Below are positions 3,664-63,648 of a stretch of DNA of 64,000 bases, one piece after another. The notes beneath the pieces are model-generated. The model did not search any database, was not told the DNA's origin, and saw nothing but the letters and a program-made list of their open reading frames with translations. A program made the translations under genes and the position numbers. Location: NCBI RefSeq assembly GCF_056712565.1, contig NZ_CM160072.1; one strand, 5' to 3'. Numbering within the stretch: the stretch's first letter is position 1; the number at the start of each line of letters is the position of its first letter.

Positions 3664-4898
<1,235 letters not shown>

Positions 4899-4961
4899 AA
4901 CTCGCCCTTTGTCATAGACGTGCTGCGTATTGTTCAGATAATGAGAATCCATTTGTATCAT

Positions 4962-5517
4962 GAAGCACGGTTGTTTTGCGGTAGGTTAAGATCAAAATTG
5001 CGCTGATTAATCCTGGTTATCGGGAGATGCTCGGTGATAAAAAGCGAATTATCTCTCGCCGTAAACAAACTATCGCATGAATATTATCACTATAATGAAT
5101 TTGTTATTTGGCCTTTACGAGTCAGGATAATAGATAGCTGGGCGCGTTTTTTTATGTTAACAAGTTAAAACCATCAGATTTTATTGAATAAATATTGATT
5201 GTGTGATTCCCGCACTCTGCGGGAAGAGATATTATTTAATTATAAATTAAATGAATGAGATTTCTGTTTTTCATTAAGTATTTCTAACAACTTAATGTAG
5301 ATATTTTAAATGTCTCCAGGCTATTTCACCAGGTTATCATTTGATGCTAACCTTCTGACACATGCAGTGGAGTTGTTGTGCAGCAGGAGTATGCTGATAT
5401 GAAAGTGAATGCTAAGGATAATTTATTCGCTTAATCTATTAATTTGCTGGAAATATTTAAGGAATGAATGCCTTGAATAAACCATCATGATTTTTAGACA
5501 GTGGATGTGGAGGAAAT
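4962..5517 (+). promoter_or_regulatory. AT-rich leader/promoter region of the yjjQ-bglJ operon (expected H-NS target)
   Basis: Roughly 550 bp of strongly AT-rich non-coding sequence (runs such as ttatttaattataaattaaatgaatgag) immediately upstream of yjjQ. H-NS silencing and LeuO activation are recalled from the literature, not visible in sequence. Confidence 0.6.
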
Positions 5518-6243
5518 ATGTTGCCAGGATGCTGCAAAAATGGAATTGTTATCAGTAAAATACCTGTTATGCAAGCAGGGTTAAAAGAGGTCATGAGGAC
5601 TCACTTCCCTGAATATGAAATAATATCCAGCGCCTCTGCGGAGGACCTTACCTTATTACAATTACGTCGTTCCGGATTAGTCATTGCTGATTTGGCCGGT
5701 GAAAGTGAAGATCCACGTTCCGTTTGTGAGCATTATTACTCTTTAATCTCACAATATCGGGAAATTCACTGGGTTTTCATGGTGTCACGCTCCTGGTATT
5801 CCCAGGCAGTAGAATTGCTCATGTGCCCTACGGCGACGTTATTGTCTGATGTTGAACCCATTGAGAATCTGGTCAAGACCGTACGTTCCGGCAATACGCA
5901 CTCAGAGCGTATCAGCGCCATGCTGACCTCTCCGGCAATGACTGAAACTCATGATTTTAGCTATCGCTCCGTCATTCTCACTCTTTCAGAGCGCAAGGTA
6001 CTGCGGCTATTAGGTAAAGGATGGGGCATCAACCAGATAGCTTCATTGCTTAAGAAAAGTAATAAAACTATTAGCGCCCAAAAAAACAGTGCGATGCGTC
6101 GACTGGCAATTCACAGCAACGCTGAAATGTATGCATGGATAAATAGCGCGCAGGGTGCAAGAGAACTTAACTTGCCTTCTGTTTATGGAGATGCCGCAGA
6201 ATGGAACACAGCCGAATTAAGAAGAGAAATGTCGCACTCATAG
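5518..6243 (+). CDS. yjjQ: LuxR/FixJ-type transcriptional regulator YjjQ
   Basis: 241-aa ORF; C-terminal LuxR-type HTH ([41 protein letters not shown]). Confidence 0.9.
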
Positions 6244-6878
6244 AAAAATGCGTCATGAGTCGTATCGGTATTGAGAGTTTATTCAGAAAGTTTGCAGGTA
6301 ACCCTTATAAGCTCCATACCTATACCAGTCAGGAGTCATTTCAGGATGCCATGTCGCGGATCTCGTTTGCAGCGGTCATTTTTTCTTTTTCTGCCATGAG
6401 AAGTGCGCGCAGAGAGGGATTATCCTGCCTGACTGAACTGGCGATTAAGTTTCCGCGTACCCGGCGTTTAGTTATTGCGGATGATGATATTGAAGCTCGG
6501 CTGATTGGTTCATTGTCGCCATCACCGCTGGACGGTGTATTAAGTAAAGCGTCAACGCTGGAGATTTTTCATCAGGAACTCTTTTTGTCATTAAATGGTG
6601 TACGTCAGGCGACCGATCGACTGAACAATCAGTGGTACATTAACCAAAGCCGGACGTTAAGCCCGACGGAGAGAGAAATATTGCGCTTTATGTCGCGTGG
6701 CTACTCAATGACACAAATTGCCGAGCAGCTTAAACGCAATATTAAAACGATCCGTGCACATAAATTTAATGTGATGTCGAAACTGGGCGTCAGTTCTGAT
6801 GCAGGGTTGTTGGAGGCCGCAGATATTCTGTTATGTATGCGGCATTGCGAAACAAGTAATGTGTTGCATCCTTATTAA
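6201..6878 (+). CDS. bglJ: LuxR-type regulator BglJ (RcsB partner)
   Basis: 225-aa ORF overlapping the yjjQ 3' end by 43 nt; C-terminal [48 protein letters not shown]. Confidence 0.9.
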
Positions 6879-7704: not shown

Positions 7705-7709
7705 AATCG

Positions 7710-7832
7710 TGATAGTAATCTAAATGATAATTATTGCTAATCCTATCGATAGGTTTACCCGATAGCAAGGAATTTCTCTGGCTTGCAAATGATAAAAATT
7801 ATCATATGATATTAGTTATCATTATCAATGAA
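7710..7832. promoter_or_regulatory. Divergent fhuF/yjjZ promoter region with Fur-box-like repeats
   Basis: Several GATAAT/ATCATT hexamer arrays: aatgataattatt (7723-7735), aatgataaaaattatcat (7788-7805), gttatcattatcaatg (7815-7830), resembling the Fur consensus GATAATGATAATCATTATC. Confidence 0.6.
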
Positions 7833-7844
7833 AGAGATGAAACC

Positions 7845-15457: not shown

Positions 15458-16233
15458 TTTGCCGTTTTATCGACACCCACTGCCATTTTGATTTCCCGCC
15501 GTTTAGTGGCGATGAAGAGGCCAGCCTGCAACGCGCGGCACAAGCGGGCGTAGGCAAGATCATTGTTCCGGCGACAGAGGCGGAAAATTTTGCCCGCGTG
15601 CAGGCGTTAGCGGAAAAATATCAACCGCTGTATGCCGCATTGGGCTTACATCCTGGTATGTTGGAAAAACATAGCGATGTGTCTCTTGATCAGCTACAGC
15701 AGGCGCTGGAAAGGCATCCGGCGAAGGTGGTGGCGGTGGGGGAGATCGGTCTGGATCTCTTTGGCGACGATCCGCAATTTGAGAGGCAGCAGTGGTTACT
15801 CGACGAACAACTGAAACTGGCGAAACGCTACGATCTGCCGGTGATCCTGCATTCACGACGCACGCACGACAAACTGGCGATGCATCTTAAACGCCACGAT
15901 TTACCGTGCACTGGCGTGGTTCATGGTTTTTCCGGCAGCCTGCAACAGGCCGAACGGTTTGTGCAACTGGGCTACAAAATTGGCGTAGGCGGGACTATCA
16001 CCTATCCACGCGCCAGTAAAACCCGCGATGTCATCGCAAAATTACCGCTGGCATCGTTGTTGCTGGAAACCGACGCACCAGATATGCCGCTCAATGGTTT
16101 TCAGGGGCAGCCTAATCGCCCTGAACAGGCCGCCCGTGTGTTTGCCGTGCTTTGCGAGTTACGACCGGAACCGGCGGATGAGATTGCCGAAGTGTTGCTT
16201 AATAACACCTATACGTTGTTTAACGTGCCGTAG
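15454..16233 (+). CDS. yjjV: TatD-family metal-dependent hydrolase YjjV
   Basis: 259-aa ORF from TTG; N-terminal IDTHCHFDF TatD motif; overlaps yjjU stop by 4 nt. Confidence 0.9.
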   Translation: MICRFIDTHCHFDFPPFSGDEEASLQRAAQAGVGKIIVPATEAENFARVQALAEKYQPLYAALGLHPGMLEKHSDVSLDQLQQALERHPAKVVAVGEIGLDLFGDDPQFERQQWLLDEQLKLAKRYDLPVILHSRRTHDKLAMHLKRHDLPCTGVVHGFSGSLQQAERFVQLGYKIGVGGTITYPRASKTRDVIAKLPLASLLLETDAPDMPLNGFQGQPNRPEQAARVFAVLCELRPEPADEIAEVLLNNTYTLFNVP

Positions 16234-16448
16234 GCCGGACAAGGCGTTTACGCCGCATCCGGCCGTTGGCGCACAATGCCTGATGCGACGCTGACGCGTC
16301 TTATCATGCCTACAAGTCTGTGCCGAACCGTAGGCCGGATAAGGCGTTCACGCCGCATCCGGCAGCTGGCGCACAATGCCTGATGCGACGCTTGACGCGT
16401 CTTATCATGCCTACAGGTCTGTGCCGATCCGTAGGCCACATCCGGCAT
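16231..16448. repeat. BIME/REP cluster: ~100-bp unit tandemly duplicated with a third partial copy
   Basis: taggccggacaaggcgtttacgccgcatccggcc...tgcctgatgcgacgctgacgcgtcttatcatgcctacaagtctgtgccgaaccg (16231-16330) is repeated with a few substitutions at 16331-16431, then a fragment taggccacatccggc; each unit contains REP-type palindromes. Confidence 0.8.
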
Positions 16449-16449
16449 G

Positions 16450-17313
16450 TCACAAATATAGCGCCGGAAATATTAACCGGCTCACCCCGCGCTCCCGTAA
16501 CGCATCAGCCAGTTGTTCCACATCCTCCGGCGTGGCGCTCGGCCAGCTTTGCGCCTCGCCATACACGCCGTGGGCATGAAACGCGTTCAGGCGTACCGGA
16601 ACATCGCCAAGTCCCTTGATTAACGCCGCCAGTTCTTCGATATGTTGCAAATAATCCACCTGGCCAGGGATTACCAGCAAACGCAGTTCCGCCAGCTTAC
16701 CGCGCTCTGCCAGCAAACAGATGCTGCGCTTGATCTGCTGATTATCGCGTCCGGTTAATTGCTGATGACATTCGCTCCCCCACGCTTTGAGATCGAGCAT
16801 TGCGCCGTCACACACCGGGAGCAATTTTTCCCAGCCGGTTTCGCTCAACATGCCGTTACTGTCCACGAGGCAGGTGAGATGGCACAGTTGCGGATCGTTT
16901 TTGATGGCAGTAAACAGCGCCACCACAAACGGCAACTGGGTCGTGGCTTCGCCGCCGCTTACCGTTATCCCTTCAATAAACAGAACCGCTTTGCGGACAT
17001 GGTTAAGCACCTCGTCCACGCTCATGGATTGCGCCATTGGCGTAGCATGTTGCGGACACATCTTCAGGCAGGTATCACATTGCTCGCAGACAGCCGCGCT
17101 CCACGCCACTTTGCCGTCGACAATCTGCAACGCCTGATGCGGACACTGCGGCACGCACTCTCCGCAATCATTACAGCGCCCCATCGTCCACGGATTGTGA
17201 CAGTTTTTGCAGCGCAGATTGCAGCCCTGCAAAAACAGAGCCAGACGACTGCCTGGCCCGTCAACGCAGGAGAAGGGGATAATCTTACTGACTAAAGCGC
17301 ATCTGCTGTTCAT
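16450..17313 (-). CDS. yjjW: Glycyl-radical-enzyme activating enzyme (radical SAM) YjjW
   Basis: 287-aa ORF; radical [11 protein letters not shown] near N-terminus plus two ferredoxin-like clusters [12 protein letters not shown] and [12 protein letters not shown]. Confidence 0.9.
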
Positions 17314-18835
17314 GGCTTATCACGCGCGGCTGGCGTTCCAGAATACGAGTGTTGCGTGCGGCTTCTTCTCCCAGCCAGGTGGTGTTGGTGCGTGAACCTT
17401 CGGCGCGATATTTTTCTAAATCCGACAAACGCACCATATAACCGGTAACGCGAACCAGATCGTTACCGCTGACATTGGCGGTAAATTCACGCATTCCAGC
17501 TTTAAAGGCACCGAGGCAAAGCTGTACCAGCGCCTGCGGATTACGTTTGATGGTTTCGTCGAGCGTCAGAATGTCGCTGATGCCGGAATAATAATAAGCA
17601 TGATGCGGGGCGACAGTTTGCAGATGGGTAATCGGATCTGGCTCATCACCATACGGCAAACGCGCGCCCGGCGTGGTGCCGATATCGGAACTTATCCCCG
17701 ACTGTGCGTGTAACATGGCGCGTTTTTGCCAGCCATATTTCACGGGGGTATTGGCGACAAACTCCGCCAGTTGCGCGCTAATGCGATAACCCACTTCATT
17801 TGCGGCGGCCTCTTTACCGTAGCGTGCGGCAATCCCTTCTTTTTCACACAGCAAGTTAACCGCTTCCGCCAGCCCATACATGCCAAACATCGGCACAAAA
17901 CGTTCAGGGTTAATCAGCCCTTCTTTCACCAGGAAGCTATTCTCAAAGAAGTGTGATTGTTGATAGAGGAATTCACACCGCGCATCGATGATGGCGATCT
18001 GCTGTTGGCAGTAGTGCGGTAGAGTGCGCGTAAAGAAGTCCTCCAGCGATTCACTGCGCTCGGCAATGGCTTTCAGGTTTAGGCGTACCAGCGTGCTGCC
18101 ACCACCCGCCAGCGGCAGTGAGTTGTAACAGCTCACAATCCCGTAGCCCCCTTTTGTGAAAATTTTATCATGCACCGGACCGTTGGCGATGTGCGGTTTG
18201 CTACATTCACAGATGTTTTTCGCCACTTCCAGCAGCAGGTCATCAGGGGTGATATCAGGATCGTAGATAAAGGTCAGGTTCGGTGAAACCTGCTTCAGCT
18301 CTGCGTCTGCACGTAATATCGCACGGGTAATGGGCGAATCAGACGGGCCGATATTGGCATGCATAAAGGCGTCTGGCAGGGTTCTGTCGAGGTAACGCCA
18401 GAAACGTTTTATTCGAATATCGATCTCGTCTTGTGTTAGAATTCTAACATACGGTTGCAACAACGCATCCAGTTGCCCCAGGTAGACCGGCATCGATGTG
18501 ACCGACGGTACATGGTGGTAAAGAATGGTCAGCAGAGAGAGTGCGTCATCAAGGTCTTTCGCGCCTTCCAGCTCCAGCCATTCGGAACCGTTGGCCAAAA
18601 AACGGGCGTAATCGGGTAAGACATAGCGCGGTTTGTACGGCGCATGACCTTCAAACATATCGCAGATTACCCCCTCATCCAGCGCGCGGCGGGCTTCGGC
18701 AGGCAGCTGTGGGTAAGGCAGATTGTTTTCTGCTTCCAGTGCCAGAAAATGGCGCTTCTGCTCCGGGCTAAGTACCGGGCTGGTGACAATTTGCTGGCAA
18801 CGTTGTTGCAGTGCATTTTCATGAGAAGTGGGCAT
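17285..18835 (-). CDS. yjjI: Glycine-radical-enzyme-family protein YjjI (DUF3029), substrate unknown
   Basis: 516-aa ORF; C-terminal region contains RVTGY resembling the glycyl-radical RVSGY motif; 29-nt overlap with downstream yjjW. Confidence 0.85.
18434..18449 (+). promoter_or_regulatory. DeoR operator O1 (deoP1), lying inside the yjjI coding sequence
   Basis: Perfect 16-bp palindrome TGTTAGAATTCTAACA; exactly 599 bp upstream of the second copy at 19033. Confidence 0.8.
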
Positions 18836-40293: not shown

Positions 40294-41646
40294 ATGTTGA
40301 AATCCCCCCTGTTCTGGAAAATGACCACCTTGTTTGGTGCAGTATTGCTGTTGTTGATTCCGATAATGCTGATTCGGCAGGTGATTGTCGAACGTGCCGA
40401 TTACCGTAGCGATGTGGAAGATGTGATTCGCCAAAGTACCAGCGGGCCGCAAAAACTCGTTGGGCCGCTCATCGCTATTCCTGTGACCGAGCTTTATACG
40501 GTGCAGGAAGACGATAAAACCGTGGAGCGGAAACGAAGTTTTATTCATTTTTGGTTACCTGAGTCATTGATGGTTGATGGCAATCAGAATGTGGAAGAAC
40601 GCAAGATAGGCATCTATACCGGTCAGGTCTGGCACAGTGATTTAACGCTAAAAGCCGATTTCGATGTTTCGCGTCTTAGCGAACTCGACGCGCCAAATAT
40701 CACCTTAGGCAAGCCATTTATTGTGATTAGCGTCGGGGATGCGCGTGGTATTGGTGTGGTGAAAGCGCCTGAAGTTAACGGTACGGCGCTGACCATTGAA
40801 CCCGGCACCGGGTTAGAGCAAGGCGGGCAGGGCGTGCATATCCCTTTACCCGAAGGGGACTGGCGCAAGCAGAACCTGAAGCTGAATGTGGCGCTGAATT
40901 TAAGCGGTACCGGCGATCTTTCTGTGGTGCCTGGCGGGCGTTATAGCGAAATGACCTTAACCAGCAACTGGCCGCATCCCAGTTTTTTAGGTGATTTTCT
41001 ACCAGCCAAACGGGAAGTTAGCGAGTCAGGTTTTCAGGCGCAATGGCAAAGTAGCTGGTTTGCTAATAATCTCGGTGAGCGTTTTGCTTCAGGCAATGAT
41101 ACCGGCTGGGAAAACTTCCCCGCGTTTAGCGTCGCAGTGACGACGCCAGCCGATCAATACCAATTAACGGACCGGGCGACTAAGTACGCCATTCTGCTGA
41201 TTGCGCTGACTTTTATGGCATTCTTTGTTTTTGAAACGCTCACCGCGCAACGTTTACACCCAATGCAATATTTGCTGGTGGGGCTTTCATTGGTGATGTT
41301 TTATTTGCTCTTGCTGGCGCTTTCTGAACATACCGGTTTTACCGTGGCATGGATAATCGCCAGTCTGATTGGGGCGTTAATGAACGGTATTTATTTGCAG
41401 GCGGTATTGAAAGGCTGGCGTAATAGCATGTTGTTTACCCTCGCGCTGTTGTTGCTGGATGGTGTGATGTGGGGACTGCTCAACTCTGCCGATAGCGCGC
41501 TGTTGTTGGGAACCAGTGTGCTGGTGGTGGCGCTGGCCGGCATGATGTTTGTGACCCGTAATATCGACTGGTATGCGTTTTCACTGCCGAAAATGAAAGC
41601 CAGTAAAGAAGTTACCATGGACGATGAATTACGTATCTGGAAATAA
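40294..41646 (+). CDS. creD: Inner-membrane protein CreD
   Basis: 450-aa ORF with N-terminal TM segment and multi-TM C-terminus. Confidence 0.93.
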   Translation: MLKSPLFWKMTTLFGAVLLLLIPIMLIRQVIVERADYRSDVEDVIRQSTSGPQKLVGPLIAIPVTELYTVQEDDKTVERKRSFIHFWLPESLMVDGNQNVEERKIGIYTGQVWHSDLTLKADFDVSRLSELDAPNITLGKPFIVISVGDARGIGVVKAPEVNGTALTIEPGTGLEQGGQGVHIPLPEGDWRKQNLKLNVALNLSGTGDLSVVPGGRYSEMTLTSNWPHPSFLGDFLPAKREVSESGFQAQWQSSWFANNLGERFASGNDTGWENFPAFSVAVTTPADQYQLTDRATKYAILLIALTFMAFFVFETLTAQRLHPMQYLLVGLSLVMFYLLLLALSEHTGFTVAWIIASLIGALMNGIYLQAVLKGWRNSMLFTLALLLLDGVMWGLLNSADSALLLGTSVLVVALAGMMFVTRNIDWYAFSLPKMKASKEVTMDDELRIWK

Positions 41647-43954: not shown

Positions 43955-44023
<69 letters not shown>

Positions 44024-44046
44024 CGCGTACAGGAAACACAGAAAAA

Positions 44047-44078
44047 AGCCCGCACCTGACAGTGCGGGCTTTTTTTTC
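44047..44078 (+). terminator. thr attenuator (leader terminator)
   Basis: agcccgcacctgacagtgcgggct hairpin followed by ttttttt, between thrL and thrA. Confidence 0.93.
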
Positions 44079-49000: not shown

Positions 49001-49297
49001 GTGAAAAAGATGCAATCTATCGTACTCGCACTTTCCCTGGTTCTGGTCGCTCCCATGGCAGCGCAGGCTGCGGAAATTACGCTAGTCCCGTCAGTAAAAT
49101 TACAGATAGGCGATCGTGATAATCGTGGCTATTACTGGGATGGCGGTCACTGGCGCGACCACGGCTGGTGGAAACAACATTATGAATGGCGAGGCAATCG
49201 CTGGCACCCATATGGACCGCCGCCATCGCCGCGCCATAACAAGCACAATGATCATCGTGGCGATCATCGTCCGGAGCCGGACAAACATCATCGCTAA
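49001..49297 (+). CDS. yaaX: Secreted His/Trp/Arg-rich protein YaaX (DUF2502)
   Basis: 98-aa ORF with signal peptide [23 protein letters not shown]. Confidence 0.85.
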
Positions 49298-49336
49298 ATA
49301 TCAATGCCGGATTACCATCCGGCATTGACTACAAAC

Positions 49337-50113
49337 TTAACGCTGCTCGTAGCGTTTAAACACCAGTTCGCCATTGCTGGAGGAAGCTTCATCAAAGAAG
49401 TAACCTTCGCTATTAAAACCAGTCAGTTGCTCTGGTTTGGTCAGCCGATTTTCAATAATGAAACGACTCATCAGACCGCGTGCTTTCTTAGCGTAGAAGC
49501 TGATTATCTTAAATTTGCCGTTCTTCTCATCGAGGAACACTGGCTTGATAATCTCGGCATTCAATTTCTTCGGCTTCACCGATTTAAAATACTCATCTGA
49601 CGCCAGATTTATCACCACATTATCGCCTTGTGCTGCGAGCGCCTCGTTCAGCTTGTTGGTGATGATATCTCCCCAGAATTGATACAGATCTTTCCCTCGG
49701 GCATTCTCAAGACGTATCCCCATTTCCAGACGATAAGGCTGCATTAAATCGAGCGGGCGCAGTACGCCATACAAGCCGGAAAGCATTCGCAAATGCTGTT
49801 GGGCAAAATCGAAATCGTCTTCGCTGAAGGTTTCGGCCTGCAAGCCAGTGTAGACATCACCTTTAAACACCAGAATTGCCTGGCGGGCATTCTCCGGTGT
49901 GAAATTTGGCTGCCAGTCATGAAAGCGAGCGGCGTTGATACCCGCCAGTTTGTCGCTGATGCGCATCAGGGAGCTAATCTGCGGGGGCGTCAGTTTCCGC
50001 GCTTCATGGATCAGCTGCTGGGCGTTGTCTAACAGCTCCGGCAGCGTATAGCGCGTGGTGGTCAACGGGCTTTGGTAATCAAGCGTTTTCGCAGGTGAAA
50101 TAAGAATCAGCAT
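49337..50113 (-). CDS. yaaA: Peroxide stress protein YaaA (DUF328)
   Basis: 258-aa [31 protein letters not shown]... Confidence 0.93.
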
Positions 50114-53594: not shown

Positions 53595-53694
53595 TGCCTG
53601 ATGCGCTACGCTTATCAGGCCTACGATCTTCTTGCAATATATTGAATTTGCACGATTTTGTAGGCCGGATAAGGCGTTCACGCCGCATCCGGCA
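53595..53694. repeat. REP/BIME element pair between mog and satP
   Basis: ctgcctgatgcgctacgcttatcaggcctac and gtaggccggataaggcgttcacgccgcatccggca, canonical REP palindromes. Confidence 0.7.
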
Positions 53695-57898: not shown

Positions 57899-57986
57899 TC
57901 GCCCTATAAACGGGTAATTATACTGACACGGGCGAAGGGGAATTTCCTCTCCGCCCGTGCATTCATCTAGGGGCAAATCAAAAAAG

Positions 57987-59221: not shown

Positions 59222-59374
59222 TTACTCGGATTCGTAAGCCGTGAAAACAGCAACCTCCGTCTGGCCAGTTCGGATGTGAACCTCACAGAGGTCTTTTCTC
59301 GTTACCAGCGCCGCCACTACGGCGGTGATACAGATGACGATCAGGGCGACAATCATCGCCTTATGCTGCTTCAT
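59222..59374 (-). CDS. hokC: Type I toxin HokC/Gef (small membrane toxin)
   Basis: Translation MKQHKAMIVALIVICITAVVAALVTRKDLCEVHIRTGQTEVAVFTAYESE (50 aa), Hok/Gef family. Confidence 0.93.
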   Translation of the reverse strand: MKQHKAMIVALIVICITAVVAALVTRKDLCEVHIRTGQTEVAVFTAYESE

Positions 59375-59431
59375 TGCTCTCTTCTCCTTGACCTTACGGT
59401 CAGTAAGAGGCACTCTACATGTGTTCTGCAT
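59222..59431 (-). CDS. mokC: MokC, overlapping reading frame translationally coupled to hokC
   Basis: Same frame, upstream ATG at 59431 giving MQNTCRVPLTDRKVKEKRA-MKQHK... (69 aa). Confidence 0.8.
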   Translation of the reverse strand: MQNTCRVPLTDRKVKEKRAMKQHKAMIVALIVICITAVVAALVTRKDLCEVHIRTGQTEVAVFTAYESE

Positions 59432-59477
59432 ATAGGGGGCCTCGGGTTGATGGTAAAATATCACTCGGGGCTTTTCT
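59423..59477 (+). ncRNA. sokC: SokC antisense RNA (approximate position)
   Basis: Placed only by the expected position relative to the mokC start in hok/sok loci; not verified by promoter or structure. Confidence 0.4.
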
Positions 59478-59985
59478 CTATCTGCCGTTCAGCTAATGCC
59501 TGAGACAGACAGCCTCAAGCACCCGCCGCTATTATATCGCTCTCTTTAACCCATTCTGTTTTATCGATTCTAATCCTGAAGACGCCTCGCATTTTTGCGT
59601 AATCAATCTTTAGTACATTGTTTATTTTAACTCTTATGTGCGTTTTCATTTACAAAAGTTGAGATTATGAACAAGAGGTTTAAGTTATGCCTGAATGGTG
59701 AGTTATTACTGGAGAAAGTAATAGAAGATACAAAATATTCTTGTACAGAATTGAATTTTCTTTTTGTGAGGAAAAATGTTTATAAATCAATGAGTGATAT
59801 TTAAAATCGACACACTTTTTGAAACACGATACCTCCACACCCGGGGGTAAAAGTAATCTGCGATCTCCATCACGCTTTGCCATTCACCTTTAAATATACT
59901 TTCTGAGTCGTTCTTAATCAAAATGAATTATCTGATGTATTGATTTCTATGGAACCATAAAAAAAATGAATGGAGAGCATATTAT

Positions 59986-60747
59986 ATGTCTGCCAAAAGA
60001 CGGCTTCTTATTGCGTGTGCCCTGACAACGATTTTCTATCACCTTCCTGCATATTCTTCATTAGAATATAAAGGTTCCTTTGGCTCAATAAATGCAGGTT
60101 ATGCTGACTGGAATAGTGGCTTCATTAACACTCATCGTGGTGAAGTATGGAAAGTGACTGCAGACTTTGGTGTGAATTTTAAAGAAGCCGAGTTTTACTC
60201 ATTTTATGAAAGCAATGTGCTTAACCATGCCGTAGCGGGGCGTAATCATACCGTTTCTGCTATGACACATGTCAGACTCTTTGACTCCAATATGACTTTC
60301 TTTGGCAAGATCTATGGTCAATGGGATAACTCATGGGGTGACGATCTTGATATGTTTTATGGTTTGGGCTACCTCGGCTGGAATGGTTCATGGGGGTTTT
60401 TTAAACCGTATATTGGATTACATAATCAATCTGGAGACTACGTCTCAGCCAAATATGGACAAACAAATGGCTGGAATGGTTATGTTGTTGGCTGGACAGC
60501 AGTATTACCTTTTACGTTATTTGACGAAAAATTTGTTTTATCTAACTGGAATGAAATAGAACTGGACAGAAATGATGCCTATGCGGAACAACAATTTGGT
60601 CGGAATGGGCTAAATGGCGGTTTAACAGTAGCCTGGAAGTTCTATCCTCGCTGGAAAGCCAGTGTGACGTGGCGTTATTTCGATAATAAGTTGGGCTACG
60701 ATGGTTTTGGCGATCAAATGATTTATATGCTTGGTTATGATTTCTAA
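59986..60747 (+). CDS. Tsx/OmpK-family outer-membrane channel
   Basis: 253-aa ORF; signal peptide MSAKRRLLIACALTTIFYHLPAYS; aromatic/Gly-rich beta-strand pattern (WNGSWGFFKPYIG; WNGYVVGWTAV); C-terminal ...MLGYDF resembling Tsx ...GYNF; RBS tggagag; AT-rich. Confidence 0.7.
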   Translation: MSAKRRLLIACALTTIFYHLPAYSSLEYKGSFGSINAGYADWNSGFINTHRGEVWKVTADFGVNFKEAEFYSFYESNVLNHAVAGRNHTVSAMTHVRLFDSNMTFFGKIYGQWDNSWGDDLDMFYGLGYLGWNGSWGFFKPYIGLHNQSGDYVSAKYGQTNGWNGYVVGWTAVLPFTLFDEKFVLSNWNEIELDRNDAYAEQQFGRNGLNGGLTVAWKFYPRWKASVTWRYFDNKLGYDGFGDQMIYMLGYDF

Positions 60748-60766
60748 TTTTCATCAGGGAATAATT

Positions 60767-62260
60767 ATGCAGAAAACATTAATGGCCAGTTTGATCGGCC
60801 TTGCAGTTTGCACAGGGAATGCTTTTAATCCAGTCGTAGCTGCCGAGACTAAACAACCCAATTTAGTCATCATTATGGCGGATGATTTAGGCTATGGTGA
60901 TTTAGCAACATATGGACATCAGATCGTTAAAACACCCAATATTGACAGGCTTGCCCAGGAGGGCGTCAAATTTACTGACTACTATGCACCAGCTCCCTTA
61001 AGTTCTCCTTCGCGGGCGGGGTTATTAACGGGGCGGATGCCATTTCGTACCGGCATACGTTCATGGATCCCAACGGGAAAAGATGTGGCATTAGGGCGTA
61101 ATGAACTCACGATTGCTAATCTACTCAAAGCGCAAGGGTATGACACGGCCATGATGGGTAAGCTGCATCTGAATGCAGGCGGCGATCGCACCGATCAGCC
61201 GCAGGCAAAAGATATGGGCTTTGATTACTCACTGGTTAATACGGCGGGTTTTGTTACCGACGCCACGCTGGATAACGCTAAAGAACGCCCGCGTTATGGC
61301 ATGGTTTACCCGACAGGCTGGCTACGTAACGGGCAACCCACTCCACGAGCCGATAAAATGAGCGGTGAGTATGTCAGTTCGGAAGTCGTCAACTGGCTGG
61401 ATAACAAAAAGGACAGCAAGCCTTTCTTCCTCTATGTTGCTTTTACCGAAGTGCATAGCCCCCTGGCTTCGCCCAAAAAATACCTCGACATGTACTCACA
61501 ATATATGAGCGCGTATCAGAAGCAGCATCCTGATTTATTTTATGGCGACTGGGCAGACAAACCCTGGCGTGGTGTGGGGGAATATTATGCCAATATCAGC
61601 TATCTGGATGCACAGGTTGGAAAAGTGCTGGATAAAATCAAAGCGATGGGTGAAGAAGATAACACAATCGTTATTTTTACCAGTGATAACGGTCCGGTAA
61701 CGCGTGAAGCGCGCAAAGTGTATGAGCTGAATTTGGCAGGGGAAACGGATGGATTACGCGGTCGCAAGGATAACCTTTGGGAAGGCGGAATTCGTGTTCC
61801 AGCCATTATTAAATATGGTAAACATCTACCACAGGGAATGGTTTCAGATACACCCGTTTATGGTCTGGACTGGATGCCTACTTTAGCGAAAATGATGAAC
61901 TTCAAATTACCTACAGACCGTACTTTCGATGGTGAATCGCTGGTTCCTGTTCTTGAGCAAAAAGCATTGAAACGCGAAAAGCCATTAATTTTCGGGATTG
62001 ATATGCCATTCCAGGATGATCCAACCGATGAATGGGCGATCCGTGATGGTGACTGGAAGATGATTATCGATCGCAATAATAAACCGAAATATCTCTACAA
62101 TCTGAAATCTGATCGTTATGAAACACTTAATCTGATCGGTAAAAAACCAGATATTGAAAAACAGATGTATGGTAAGTTTTTAAAATATAAAACTGATATT
62201 GATAATGATTCTCTAATGAAAGCCAGAGGTGATAAACCAGAAGCGGTGACCTGGGGCTAA
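60767..62260 (+). CDS. Periplasmic sulfatase, Ser-type (S-x-P-S-R)
   Basis: ORF-track frame 60731..62260; ATG at 60767 with RBS aggga; signal peptide MQKTLMASLIGLAVCTGNAFNPVVAAE; N-terminal IIMADDLGYGD and signature APAPLSSPSRAGLLTGR; 19 bp after the channel gene. Confidence 0.85.
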   Translation: MQKTLMASLIGLAVCTGNAFNPVVAAETKQPNLVIIMADDLGYGDLATYGHQIVKTPNIDRLAQEGVKFTDYYAPAPLSSPSRAGLLTGRMPFRTGIRSWIPTGKDVALGRNELTIANLLKAQGYDTAMMGKLHLNAGGDRTDQPQAKDMGFDYSLVNTAGFVTDATLDNAKERPRYGMVYPTGWLRNGQPTPRADKMSGEYVSSEVVNWLDNKKDSKPFFLYVAFTEVHSPLASPKKYLDMYSQYMSAYQKQHPDLFYGDWADKPWRGVGEYYANISYLDAQVGKVLDKIKAMGEEDNTIVIFTSDNGPVTREARKVYELNLAGETDGLRGRKDNLWEGGIRVPAIIKYGKHLPQGMVSDTPVYGLDWMPTLAKMMNFKLPTDRTFDGESLVPVLEQKALKREKPLIFGIDMPFQDDPTDEWAIRDGDWKMIIDRNNKPKYLYNLKSDRYETLNLIGKKPDIEKQMYGKFLKYKTDIDNDSLMKARGDKPEAVTWG

Positions 62261-62308
62261 CCTGATAATCATAATAAATGTAATGTATGCCATTTAGGGC
62301 TATGCCCG

Positions 62309-62346
62309 CCTGATTCAGTGCTACGCATTGAATCAGGTTCTTTTCG
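62309..62346 (+). terminator. Rho-independent terminator after the sulfatase gene
   Basis: cctgattcagtg-ctacgc-attgaatcagg hairpin followed by ttcttttcg. Confidence 0.65.
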
Positions 62347-62388
62347 CGTTGAACAATATCAAGATACGGCTATTCGCAGGGAGTGGAT

Positions 62389-63648
62389 ATGTTTACCAAC
62401 GTAAATGTTGATTGTTGCAAAACACCAGGATGTAAAAACCTGGGGTTGCTGAATAGCCAGGATTATGTCGCACAGGGTAAAAATATTTTATGCCGTGAAT
62501 GTGGTTACTTGTTTCCAGTGATATCTGAACAGTCGCTTAATATTTATCGTAATATTGTGAATCACTCCTGGAGAGGTTTGATTTGCCAATGTTCAACTTG
62601 CGGAGGCACGTCCCTCAAAAAATATGGATATTCTGCACAAGGCCAGAGAAGAATGTATTGCCATCATTGTGAGAAAACATTTATCACTCTGGAACATGTA
62701 ATTACCACACCACGAGGAGCCCTGTTAGCATTGATGATTGAGCAAGGGGAGGCACTTGCGGATATCAGAAAGTCATTACTTCTTAACAGCACTGGACTTA
62801 GCCGTGAACTGTTAAAATTAGCGCGTGAAGCAAACTATAAAGAAAGTCGACAGTGTTTCCCAGCTTCTGATATTACCCTGAGTACCCGCGCTTTTCGCGT
62901 CAAGTATAATGGTAGCAATAACTCTCTTTATGCTCTTGTTACCGCAGAAGAACAAAGCGGCAGGGTGGTTGCCATCTCAACCAATTACTCCCCATCTGCC
63001 GTAGAGCAACATTATCAATACACATCGAACTATGAAGAGCGTATGTCTCCAGGGACGCTGGCACATCATGTCCAGCGCAAAGAGTTACTTACTATGCGGC
63101 GGGATACCTTGTTTGATATTGATTACGGCCCGGCAGTTTTACATCAAAACGATCCGGGAATGTTGGTAAAACCGGTTCTTCCGGCATATCGTCATTTTGA
63201 ACTGGTCAGAATACTGACCGATGAGCATTCCAACAACGTTCAGCATTACCTTGATCACGAATGCTTTATATTGGGCGGCTGCCTGATGGCTAATTTGCAG
63301 CATATTCATCAAGGTCGCTGCCATATTTCCTTTGTCAAAGAGCGCGGTGTGGCACCCGCCACCATTGATTTTCCACCGCGATTATTCCTTAGTGGTGGGG
63401 TACGAAATAATGTCTGGCGTGCATTTTCTAACCGCAATTATTCAATGGCTGTATGCAATCTCACTGGCAGTAAGAAAGTCCGCGAGATGCGGCATGCAAC
63501 ATTGAACAGTGCGACGCGTTTTATCCACTTTGTGGAGAACCATCCTTTCCTTATATCATTGAACCGAATGTCTCCTGCGAATGTCGTTTCTACATTAGAT
63601 ATCCTCAAACATCTGTGGAATAAAAAACTAGAGCATGGAACAATTTAA
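62389..63648 (+). CDS. Hypothetical cysteine-rich protein with two N-terminal transposase-type zinc ribbons
   Basis: ORF-track frame 62383..63648; ATG at 62389 preceded by gcagggag RBS; 419 aa; ribbon 1 CCKTPGC-x19-CREC, ribbon 2 CQCSTCGG-x17-CHHCEKTF (G-x-Q-R-x-x-C-x-x-C-x-K-T-F), followed by about 300 aa with no motif I can assign. Confidence 0.6.
   Translation: MFTNVNVDCCKTPGCKNLGLLNSQDYVAQGKNILCRECGYLFPVISEQSLNIYRNIVNHSWRGLICQCSTCGGTSLKKYGYSAQGQRRMYCHHCEKTFITLEHVITTPRGALLALMIEQGEALADIRKSLLLNSTGLSRELLKLAREANYKESRQCFPASDITLSTRAFRVKYNGSNNSLYALVTAEEQSGRVVAISTNYSPSAVEQHYQYTSNYEERMSPGTLAHHVQRKELLTMRRDTLFDIDYGPAVLHQNDPGMLVKPVLPAYRHFELVRILTDEHSNNVQHYLDHECFILGGCLMANLQHIHQGRCHISFVKERGVAPATIDFPPRLFLSGGVRNNVWRAFSNRNYSMAVCNLTGSKKVREMRHATLNSATRFIHFVENHPFLISLNRMSPANVVSTLDILKHLWNKKLEHGTI

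Follow-up and report, generated by a model that had tools for sequence, protein, structure and literature searches.

Several H-NS-silenced transcription units of Escherichia coli resemble the locus described here, the closest being the bgl operon, the leuO promoter and the yjjP/yjjQ-bglJ region of strain K-12 itself. In the bgl operon, an AT-rich upstream region brings about silencing by H-NS; LeuO relieves this silencing and IS elements insert in the region (PMC2646131, PMC3950696), and the operon is activated by IS insertion and by BglJ-RcsB as well. The leuO gene encodes a regulator that is silenced by H-NS/StpA and activated by BglJ-RcsB, and it takes part in the same LeuO-BglJ double-positive feedback (PMC5025477); the feedback is concluded to be ineffective in the laboratory, as repression by H-NS prevails there at both loci, yjjQ-bglJ included (PMC5025477). 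In two later papers, the yjjQ-bglJ operon is described as H-NS-repressed and LeuO-activated (PMC5025477 and PMC3950696, citing Stratmann et al. 2008), and as an operon that 'would otherwise be expressed' in an hns stpA mutant (PMC3950696, and likewise PMC5025477). H-NS footprints in the yjjP/yjjQ spacer are credited to the 2008 study in later work (PMC5025477).

Further published data bear on the same spacer. Genomic SELEX places an H-NS site in it and reports binding of the RpoD holoenzyme, with the best-match promoters ATGAAA-17-TTTAAT for yjjP and CTGATA-17-GATAAT for yjjQ-bglJ (PMC3946193). ChIP-seq in ETEC H10407 gives a MarA peak in yjjP<>yjjQ with the marbox gcatcaaatgataac (PMC5684230, Table 1), a CsiR ChIP-seq peak has been reported at 4601377, with a 23-fold induction of yjjP upon CsiR overproduction (PMC5217608), and evolution experiments in the mouse gut yielded recurrent IS insertions in the spacer, with yjjP expression raised about 2-fold (PMC5094792, PMC4674774).

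The locus, its repression by H-NS and its activation by LeuO are already known for this region of the E. coli chromosome. The primary study of the locus is that of Stratmann, Madhusudan and Schnetz in 2008 (J Bacteriol 190:926), which reportedly established H-NS repression and LeuO activation, and the locus is in routine use in the Schnetz laboratory; according to the 2008 study, H-NS reportedly binds the centre of the intergenic region, and LeuO has sites in that centre as well as close to the promoter of yjjP.

We analysed one copy of this region within a window, by which we mean the whole stretch of 64,000 nucleotides under study. Among 5,426 complete E. coli genomes, all but two gave a match (5,424) to a 901-bp query covering positions 4800-5700. 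A K-12-type genome shares 96.8% identity with this query, and NZ_CP031215.1, an ST80 clinical isolate, matches it at 100%; the RefSeq annotation of that identical record supplies the gene coordinates used for the window (Table 1). Both NZ_CP031215.1 and K-12 MG1655 have the order dnaC-dnaT-yjjB-yjjP on the minus strand and yjjQ-bglJ on the plus strand, followed by fhuF, yjjZ and three tRNA-Leu genes, and the K-12 annotation describes yjjP(-yjjB) as a putative succinate exporter of the ThrE family. The first-pass annotation, made from the bare sequence, had named the genes yjjQ-bglJ, and it was right according to the annotation, the matches in E. coli genomes and the Pfam domains. Aligned end to end with the K-12 region (661 columns, about 30 of them differing), the sequence analysed here has the same genes on either side, along with the same promoter-like elements and marbox; it differs by about 10% over 5028-5283, where it carries a perfect 8-bp-stem repeat that K-12 lacks. 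On the older coordinate version of MG1655, the CsiR peak would fall at about window position 5395; its label, 'intergenic', set against the gene coordinates of MG1655, is what suggests that this version was used. Unlike bgl, which is patchy and eroding in E. coli (PMC2646131), the yjjP/yjjQ locus is present in nearly every complete genome with family-wide synteny, and its spacer serves two divergent promoters; leuO differs in its location and its set of activators. We are highly confident that the interval is the divergent yjjP(-yjjB)/yjjQ-bglJ regulatory region, acting as a platform for silencing by H-NS.

Table 1. Features of the yjjP/yjjQ-bglJ locus. Positions refer to the window unless a comparison locus (L number) is named; pi, nucleotide diversity.
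Feature	Position	Strand	Description and basis
yjjB	3664..4137	-	second exporter subunit, downstream of yjjP; annotation; Pfam ThrE_2, E = 6e-33
yjjP	4128..4898	-	ThrE-family exporter subunit, divergent to yjjQ; annotation; Pfam ThrE, E = 6e-69
yjjP/yjjQ intergenic regulatory region	4899..5517		619 bp, GC 0.346; RefSeq annotation
Interval of the first-pass annotation	4962..5517		556 bp, GC 0.340; gap between longest yjjP ORF and yjjQ
yjjP-proximal flank	4899-5027		pi 0.010 in E. coli, 0.072 across Escherichia; phased A-tracts; predicted bend 4983-4994
Fast-evolving AT-rich core	5028-5283		256 bp, GC ~0.31; pi 0.059 in E. coli, 0.200 across Escherichia
yjjQ-proximal flank	5284-5517		pi 0.008 in E. 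coli, 0.071 across Escherichia; blocks common to Citrobacter and Salmonella
Four-fold sites, five flanking genes	n/a	n/a	pi 0.059 in E. coli, 0.180 across Escherichia
GC-rich inverted repeat TTCCCGCA-CTC-TGCGGGAA	5207..5225		sequence; allele-specific
Promoter-like site towards yjjP, ATGAAA-17-TTTAAT	5246..5274	-	listed for yjjP in PMC3946193; located by string match
MarA binding site (marbox) GCATCAAATGATAAC	5333..5347	-	exact match to the ETEC H10407 marbox of PMC5684230
Sigma-70 promoter-like site for yjjQ, CTGATA-17-GATAAT	5394..5422 (-35 5394-5399, -10 5417-5422)	+	promoter scan; same string in PMC3946193
yjjQ Shine-Dalgarno GGAGG	5509..5513	+	sequence; GGAG invariant in an alignment of 12 sequences from 8 genera
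yjjQ	5518..6243	+	LuxR-type regulator, GC 0.450; annotation; Pfam GerE helix-turn-helix
bglJ	6201..6878	+	LuxR-type regulator, GC 0.448, 43-nt overlap with yjjQ; annotation; Pfam GerE
IS1 insertion	~4959-4971		strain W409
Two IS10-family copies	4920-4929 and 5345-5358		TUM14759
IS1-linked deletion	4944-6040		strain 203740; bglJ left directly beside IS1
IS1-linked deletion	4858-6432		PS3Tanimalfeces2
IS1 in yjjQ	5812-5820		GCU-H1
Loci with natural IS rearrangements	4858-6432		L083, L084, L094, L095, L096
Loci with 1.8-2.6 kb yjjP-yjjQ spacer	L070 1653-3735		also L008-L011, L025, L026, L029-L032, L034, L040, L041, L058, L065, L066, L074-L076, L079, L081

The left edge of the 556-bp interval, 4962, is the end of the longest yjjP open reading frame (277 aa), whereas RefSeq starts yjjP at 4898 (256 aa). 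We favour the annotated start as the more probable one, because the longer frame is interrupted in Escherichia sp. E1V33 by an insertion of 1 bp and because, for YjjP homologues from over 70 species, the alignment begins at the first residue of the 256-aa form. The 2008 abstract reportedly speaks of a '555-bp' AT-rich intergenic region, which matches the older 277-aa annotation of yjjP.

The description of the interval as about 550 bp of markedly AT-rich DNA between coding regions of higher GC was borne out by sliding GC. At 0.340, the GC content of 4962-5517 compares with 0.5115 for the whole window (z = -3.6), only 0.4% of 556-bp windows being equally low, and with 0.519, 0.450 and 0.448 for yjjP, yjjQ and bglJ; the lowest 200-bp window, 5101-5300, reaches 0.295. 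We also compared the region with the 36 intergenic regions of at least 80 bp annotated in the window, using the strain's own annotation (mean GC 0.468): 4899-5517 is the longest of these and the third-lowest in GC, the two lower ones being just 128 and 140 bp long, and it is therefore an outlier even among intergenic DNA. TpA steps occur at a density of 0.092, twice the window mean of 0.043 and within the top 0.3%. The homopolymeric A/T tracts that had also been pointed out are present (nine runs of at least four, the longest a T7 at 5147), but they do not exceed what AT-richness alone would give (9 versus 8.8 +/- 2.7 in shuffled sequences, P = 0.53).

Predicted DNA curvature, suggested at first pass as a check, turned out to be unremarkable at the scale of the region. 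In an approximate wedge model, the regional mean is 6.4 degrees per turn versus 5.9 for the window, with 25% of windows as high, and in the same approximate model local bend peaks are predicted only at 4983-4994 and 5544-5551. A parameter-free test of 10-11 bp phasing of AA/TT, which agrees with the wedge model, gave P = 0.16 for the whole region and 0.57 for the core, with a marginal 0.066 for the yjjQ flank and about 0.006 for the yjjP-proximal part (4899-5100), the only significant value. The canonical high-affinity H-NS motif TCGATAAATT, searched with up to two mismatches, is not enriched in the interval, with two two-mismatch matches against about 0.8 expected from the window-wide density; a nucleation motif of this kind is not obligatory for H-NS targets. 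The central suggestion, that this is a regulatory region silenced by H-NS, is in agreement with the published experiments on the operon and with the SELEX site (PMC5025477, PMC3950696, PMC3946193).

To describe how the spacer evolves, we aligned the yjjB-fhuF stretch of ten E. coli sequences and of four further Escherichia lineages. The E. coli sample is biased, since its members were selected after genomes had been sorted by their identity over the left half of the spacer. Three segments with different diversity were apparent (Table 1): nucleotide diversity in the AT-rich core is about that of four-fold sites in the five flanking genes and is, within E. coli, 6-7 times lower in both flanks. 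The core thus evolves close to the neutral rate, with stronger constraint on the flanks. Indels accumulate in the core in the same 14-sequence alignment, where its GC nevertheless always falls within 0.27-0.35. Identity counts taken across the complete genomes, which are free of the sampling bias, agree with the diversity pattern of the selected sample: the fraction of genomes less than 95% identical to the window is 22% for 4899-5208 (the 310-bp left half, with most of the core; 5,423 genomes), 0.1% for 5209-5517, 0.06% for the yjjP coding segment and 1.4% for the yjjQ coding segment. This mosaic of conserved flanks around an AT-rich core of neutral rate is one of the things that the present analysis adds, next to the case against a recent import, the weakness of the sequence signals and the structural variants.

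The yjjP-proximal flank comprises the leader of yjjP and probably its promoter region, and the yjjQ-proximal flank is predicted to carry the yjjQ promoter, the yjjQ leader and transcription-factor sites. Beyond Escherichia, just short blocks of the spacer can be aligned, for example AAGGATAA and the GGAG of the ribosome-binding site; the AAGGATAA block, which surrounds the putative yjjQ -10 element, is kept in Escherichia, Citrobacter and Salmonella. Each of the two SELEX promoter strings occurs exactly once in the window. It is uncertain whether the minus-strand string for yjjP marks a functional promoter, because it was a computational best match within a SELEX peak and because it lies in the variable core. 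Promoter-like sites as a class show no excess (5 versus 3.5 +/- 2.2 in composition-matched shuffles). The marbox has at most two mismatches across the tabulated Escherichia and is absent within three mismatches in the other tabulated genera; 70 of 79 loci have no match within three mismatches. The GC-rich inverted repeat lies in the middle of the AT-rich core with a perfect 8-bp stem, has decayed in K-12 and in the majority of E. coli alleles, and does not occur in other Escherichia. Its K-12 counterpart reads TT-TTGCA TTC TGCGGGAA, in which a plus-strand RNA could still pair via G-U. The terminator scan did not call the repeat as a terminator, and it is probably incidental.

A scan for YjjQ with one genome per species returned 80 loci, all in Enterobacteriaceae. 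In 76 of them (76 species, about 20 genera) yjjB-yjjP lies upstream and divergent and bglJ downstream of yjjQ, with fhuF downstream in nearly all of these species. The 400 bp upstream of yjjQ are AT-rich in every one, with a median GC of 0.358 versus 0.559 for yjjP and 0.517 for the locus, and a low-GC spacer of roughly 390-710 bp upstream of yjjQ is retained in the 76 species. Klebsiella, Kluyvera, Raoultella, Pseudocitrobacter and some Citrobacter have 1.8-2.6 kb between yjjP and yjjQ; in K. pneumoniae two genes occupy the extra DNA (L070 1653-3735), one for a PobA-like FAD monooxygenase (PF01494) and one for a regulator of the AraC type. Even in these long-spacer species, GC reaches its minimum 230-380 bp upstream of yjjQ; the AT-rich tract therefore goes with yjjQ and dates back as far as the family itself. 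A possible horizontal acquisition, which had also been raised at first pass, thus finds no support in the form of a recent import, given that gene order and AT-rich tract are kept in 76 species of Enterobacteriaceae; the comparison points to an ancient enteric feature and not to a recent foreign insert. The low GC and fast divergence of yjjQ-bglJ are compatible with an ancient acquisition by the ancestor of the family or with a long-term life under H-NS. On the other side of the operon, species outside Escherichia carry about 2.2 kb of DNA between bglJ and fhuF. In K. pneumoniae (L070 5364-7503) this DNA codes for a protein with a tRNA_edit domain and for a PTS EIIC protein, and Escherichia has neither gene.

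Natural isolates also show how the locus breaks. Across the 5,426 complete genomes, the two 310-bp halves of the spacer have been lost, in whole or in part, from 18 and 31 genomes, the yjjQ segment from 23 and the yjjP coding segment from 2. At least five of these genomes have IS1 or IS10 insertions or deletions at the yjjP-yjjQ-bglJ locus (Table 1). The spacer and yjjQ-bglJ are therefore dispensable and occasionally rearranged, while the yjjP coding region is kept. We considered whether the spacer is an IS hot spot and rejected this, as it is not clearly hit more often than yjjQ (18 and 31 versus 23 disrupted or absent). The deletion that leaves bglJ beside IS1 is reminiscent of the bglJ-constitutive alleles obtained in the laboratory. 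Separately, a mouse-gut strain of K-12 type (O16:H48), PG20180171, has an internal stop in yjjP (L002 3329-4099), and the pork isolate YPE10 has one in yjjQ (L085 3121-3846).

Elsewhere in the window, the divergent fhuF/yjjZ spacer (7705-7844, 140 bp) has the lowest GC of the annotated intergenic regions, 0.293, and 59770-63433, between mokC/sokC and nhaA, is a low-GC block with 556-bp windows down to 0.33. Its genes code for an outer-membrane protein of the OmpK family, a member of the sulfatase family and a hypothetical protein; K-12 carries a copy of IS186 in its place, and for this reason the block gives the impression of an islet that varies between strains. Between arcA and creD there is a transposase gene of IS200C (40787-41245). 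The identical RefSeq record lists yjjI (17285-18833) and yaaA (49117-49894) as pseudogenes with a frameshift, either real or due to assembly error. Rfam matches in the window comprise two tandem naRNA4 (REP-type) elements at 16233-16411, in the GC-rich yjjV/yjjW spacer (GC 0.616), together with the Thr leader (43959-44078), sok (59372-59524), tpke11 (57909-57986) and ES036 (53617-53659).

Four other accounts of the AT-rich spacer have to be weighed. If the region and yjjQ-bglJ were a recently acquired foreign islet, the AT-richness would be the composition of the donor, which would suit the GC of about 0.45 in yjjQ and bglJ, 6-7 points under their neighbours, as well as the identities between genera, which are 55-75% for YjjQ and 39-69% for BglJ versus 79-91% for YjjP and YjjB. 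The recent version of this account is refuted by the order yjjB-yjjP <> yjjQ-bglJ in 76 species of about 20 genera, with fhuF nearly always downstream; the locus is not patchy in E. coli, and its borders show no integrase, no junction next to a tRNA gene and no flanking repeat. The compositional offset, with median GC across genera of 0.466 for yjjQ and 0.480 for bglJ against 0.559 for yjjP, is the same in every genus (6-10 points lower in all of them) and is therefore long-standing, and we regard the foreign islet as very unlikely. Even less credible is a spacer that hides an unannotated gene, small protein or small RNA, for which one could cite 619 bp devoid of annotation, a 44-aa open reading frame at 5034-5168, and hairpins at 5043-5060 (minus strand) and 5207-5225. 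An Rfam covariance search of 4700-5700 on both strands returned no match at the gathering threshold or at E <= 1. The reading frame has no Pfam match and lies in a segment with frameshifting indels and neutral-rate substitutions, the terminator-like hairpin at 5043-5060 occurs at the level of chance (1 versus 0.6 expected) and loses its T-run in other Escherichia, and the hairpin at 5207-5225 is specific to one allele. We give just as little credence to an ordinary promoter region, in which nothing would be special since intergenic DNA is always somewhat AT-rich: the intergenic mean of the window does lie below that of coding DNA, and the count of promoter-like sites resembles that of shuffled sequence, but the region stands apart from the other intergenic regions in length and GC, and the published experiments on H-NS repression contradict this account.

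The alternative to be taken most seriously, possible in our judgement though on balance improbable, is that the AT-richness of the core reflects an unconstrained spacer that has drifted to an AT-biased mutational equilibrium, with H-NS binding as a by-product that is used or tolerated. It would explain why diversity in the core matches four-fold sites, both in E. coli (0.059 versus 0.059) and in the genus (0.200 versus 0.180), with indels accumulating and no specific H-NS motif conserved. The GC of the core, 0.27-0.35, is also about that of the mutational equilibrium of E. coli. Against drift, a low-GC spacer persists in 76 species even though deletion bias should shrink useless DNA, and the spacer is the longest intergenic region of the window; the persistence of roughly 390-710 bp argues that its length, at least, is maintained. 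Drift concerns the origin of the composition alone and is not in conflict with silencing by H-NS.

Silencing by H-NS from the divergent regulatory region, the reading we prefer, could proceed as follows. H-NS, with StpA, would bind the very AT-rich and TpA-rich core (about 5028-5283), and the composition, along with what the 2008 abstract is said to report, points to the core as the main zone of binding and nucleation. Being the most AT-rich part of the spacer and free of sequence constraint, the core may well be recognised by H-NS through composition and not through sequence. From there, H-NS would oligomerise or bridge outwards across both conserved flanks, which would occlude the promoters and leave both divergent promoters nearly off under laboratory conditions; the predicted bends at both edges would, speculatively, suit such bridging. 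The conserved flanks would carry the sequence-specific parts, namely promoters, leaders, MarA sites and presumably LeuO sites. LeuO, itself repressed by H-NS, would bind the spacer and relieve repression of yjjQ-bglJ, MarA and perhaps other factors would bind the conserved yjjQ-proximal flank, and IS insertions into the spacer would offer a mutational route to altered expression.

A stronger proposal, which we put forward as a conjecture and consider rather doubtful, is that only the AT content and the length of the core matter for H-NS silencing, so that the several deeply diverged alleles of the core present within E. coli, like the IS insertions and IS-mediated deletions of natural isolates, would set different silencing strengths for yjjQ-bglJ and yjjPB. 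If this were true, the spacer would serve in gut colonisation as a natural means of tuning both the LeuO/BglJ-RcsB circuit and the YjjPB exporter. The added value of the present analysis is modest and evolutionary, and it carries little weight as a discovery; the locus nevertheless illustrates neatly how an H-NS target can keep its AT-richness throughout a bacterial family while its sequence, between strongly conserved promoter-proximal flanks, turns over at the neutral rate, which counters the reflex reading of 'AT-rich plus H-NS' as 'recently acquired'.
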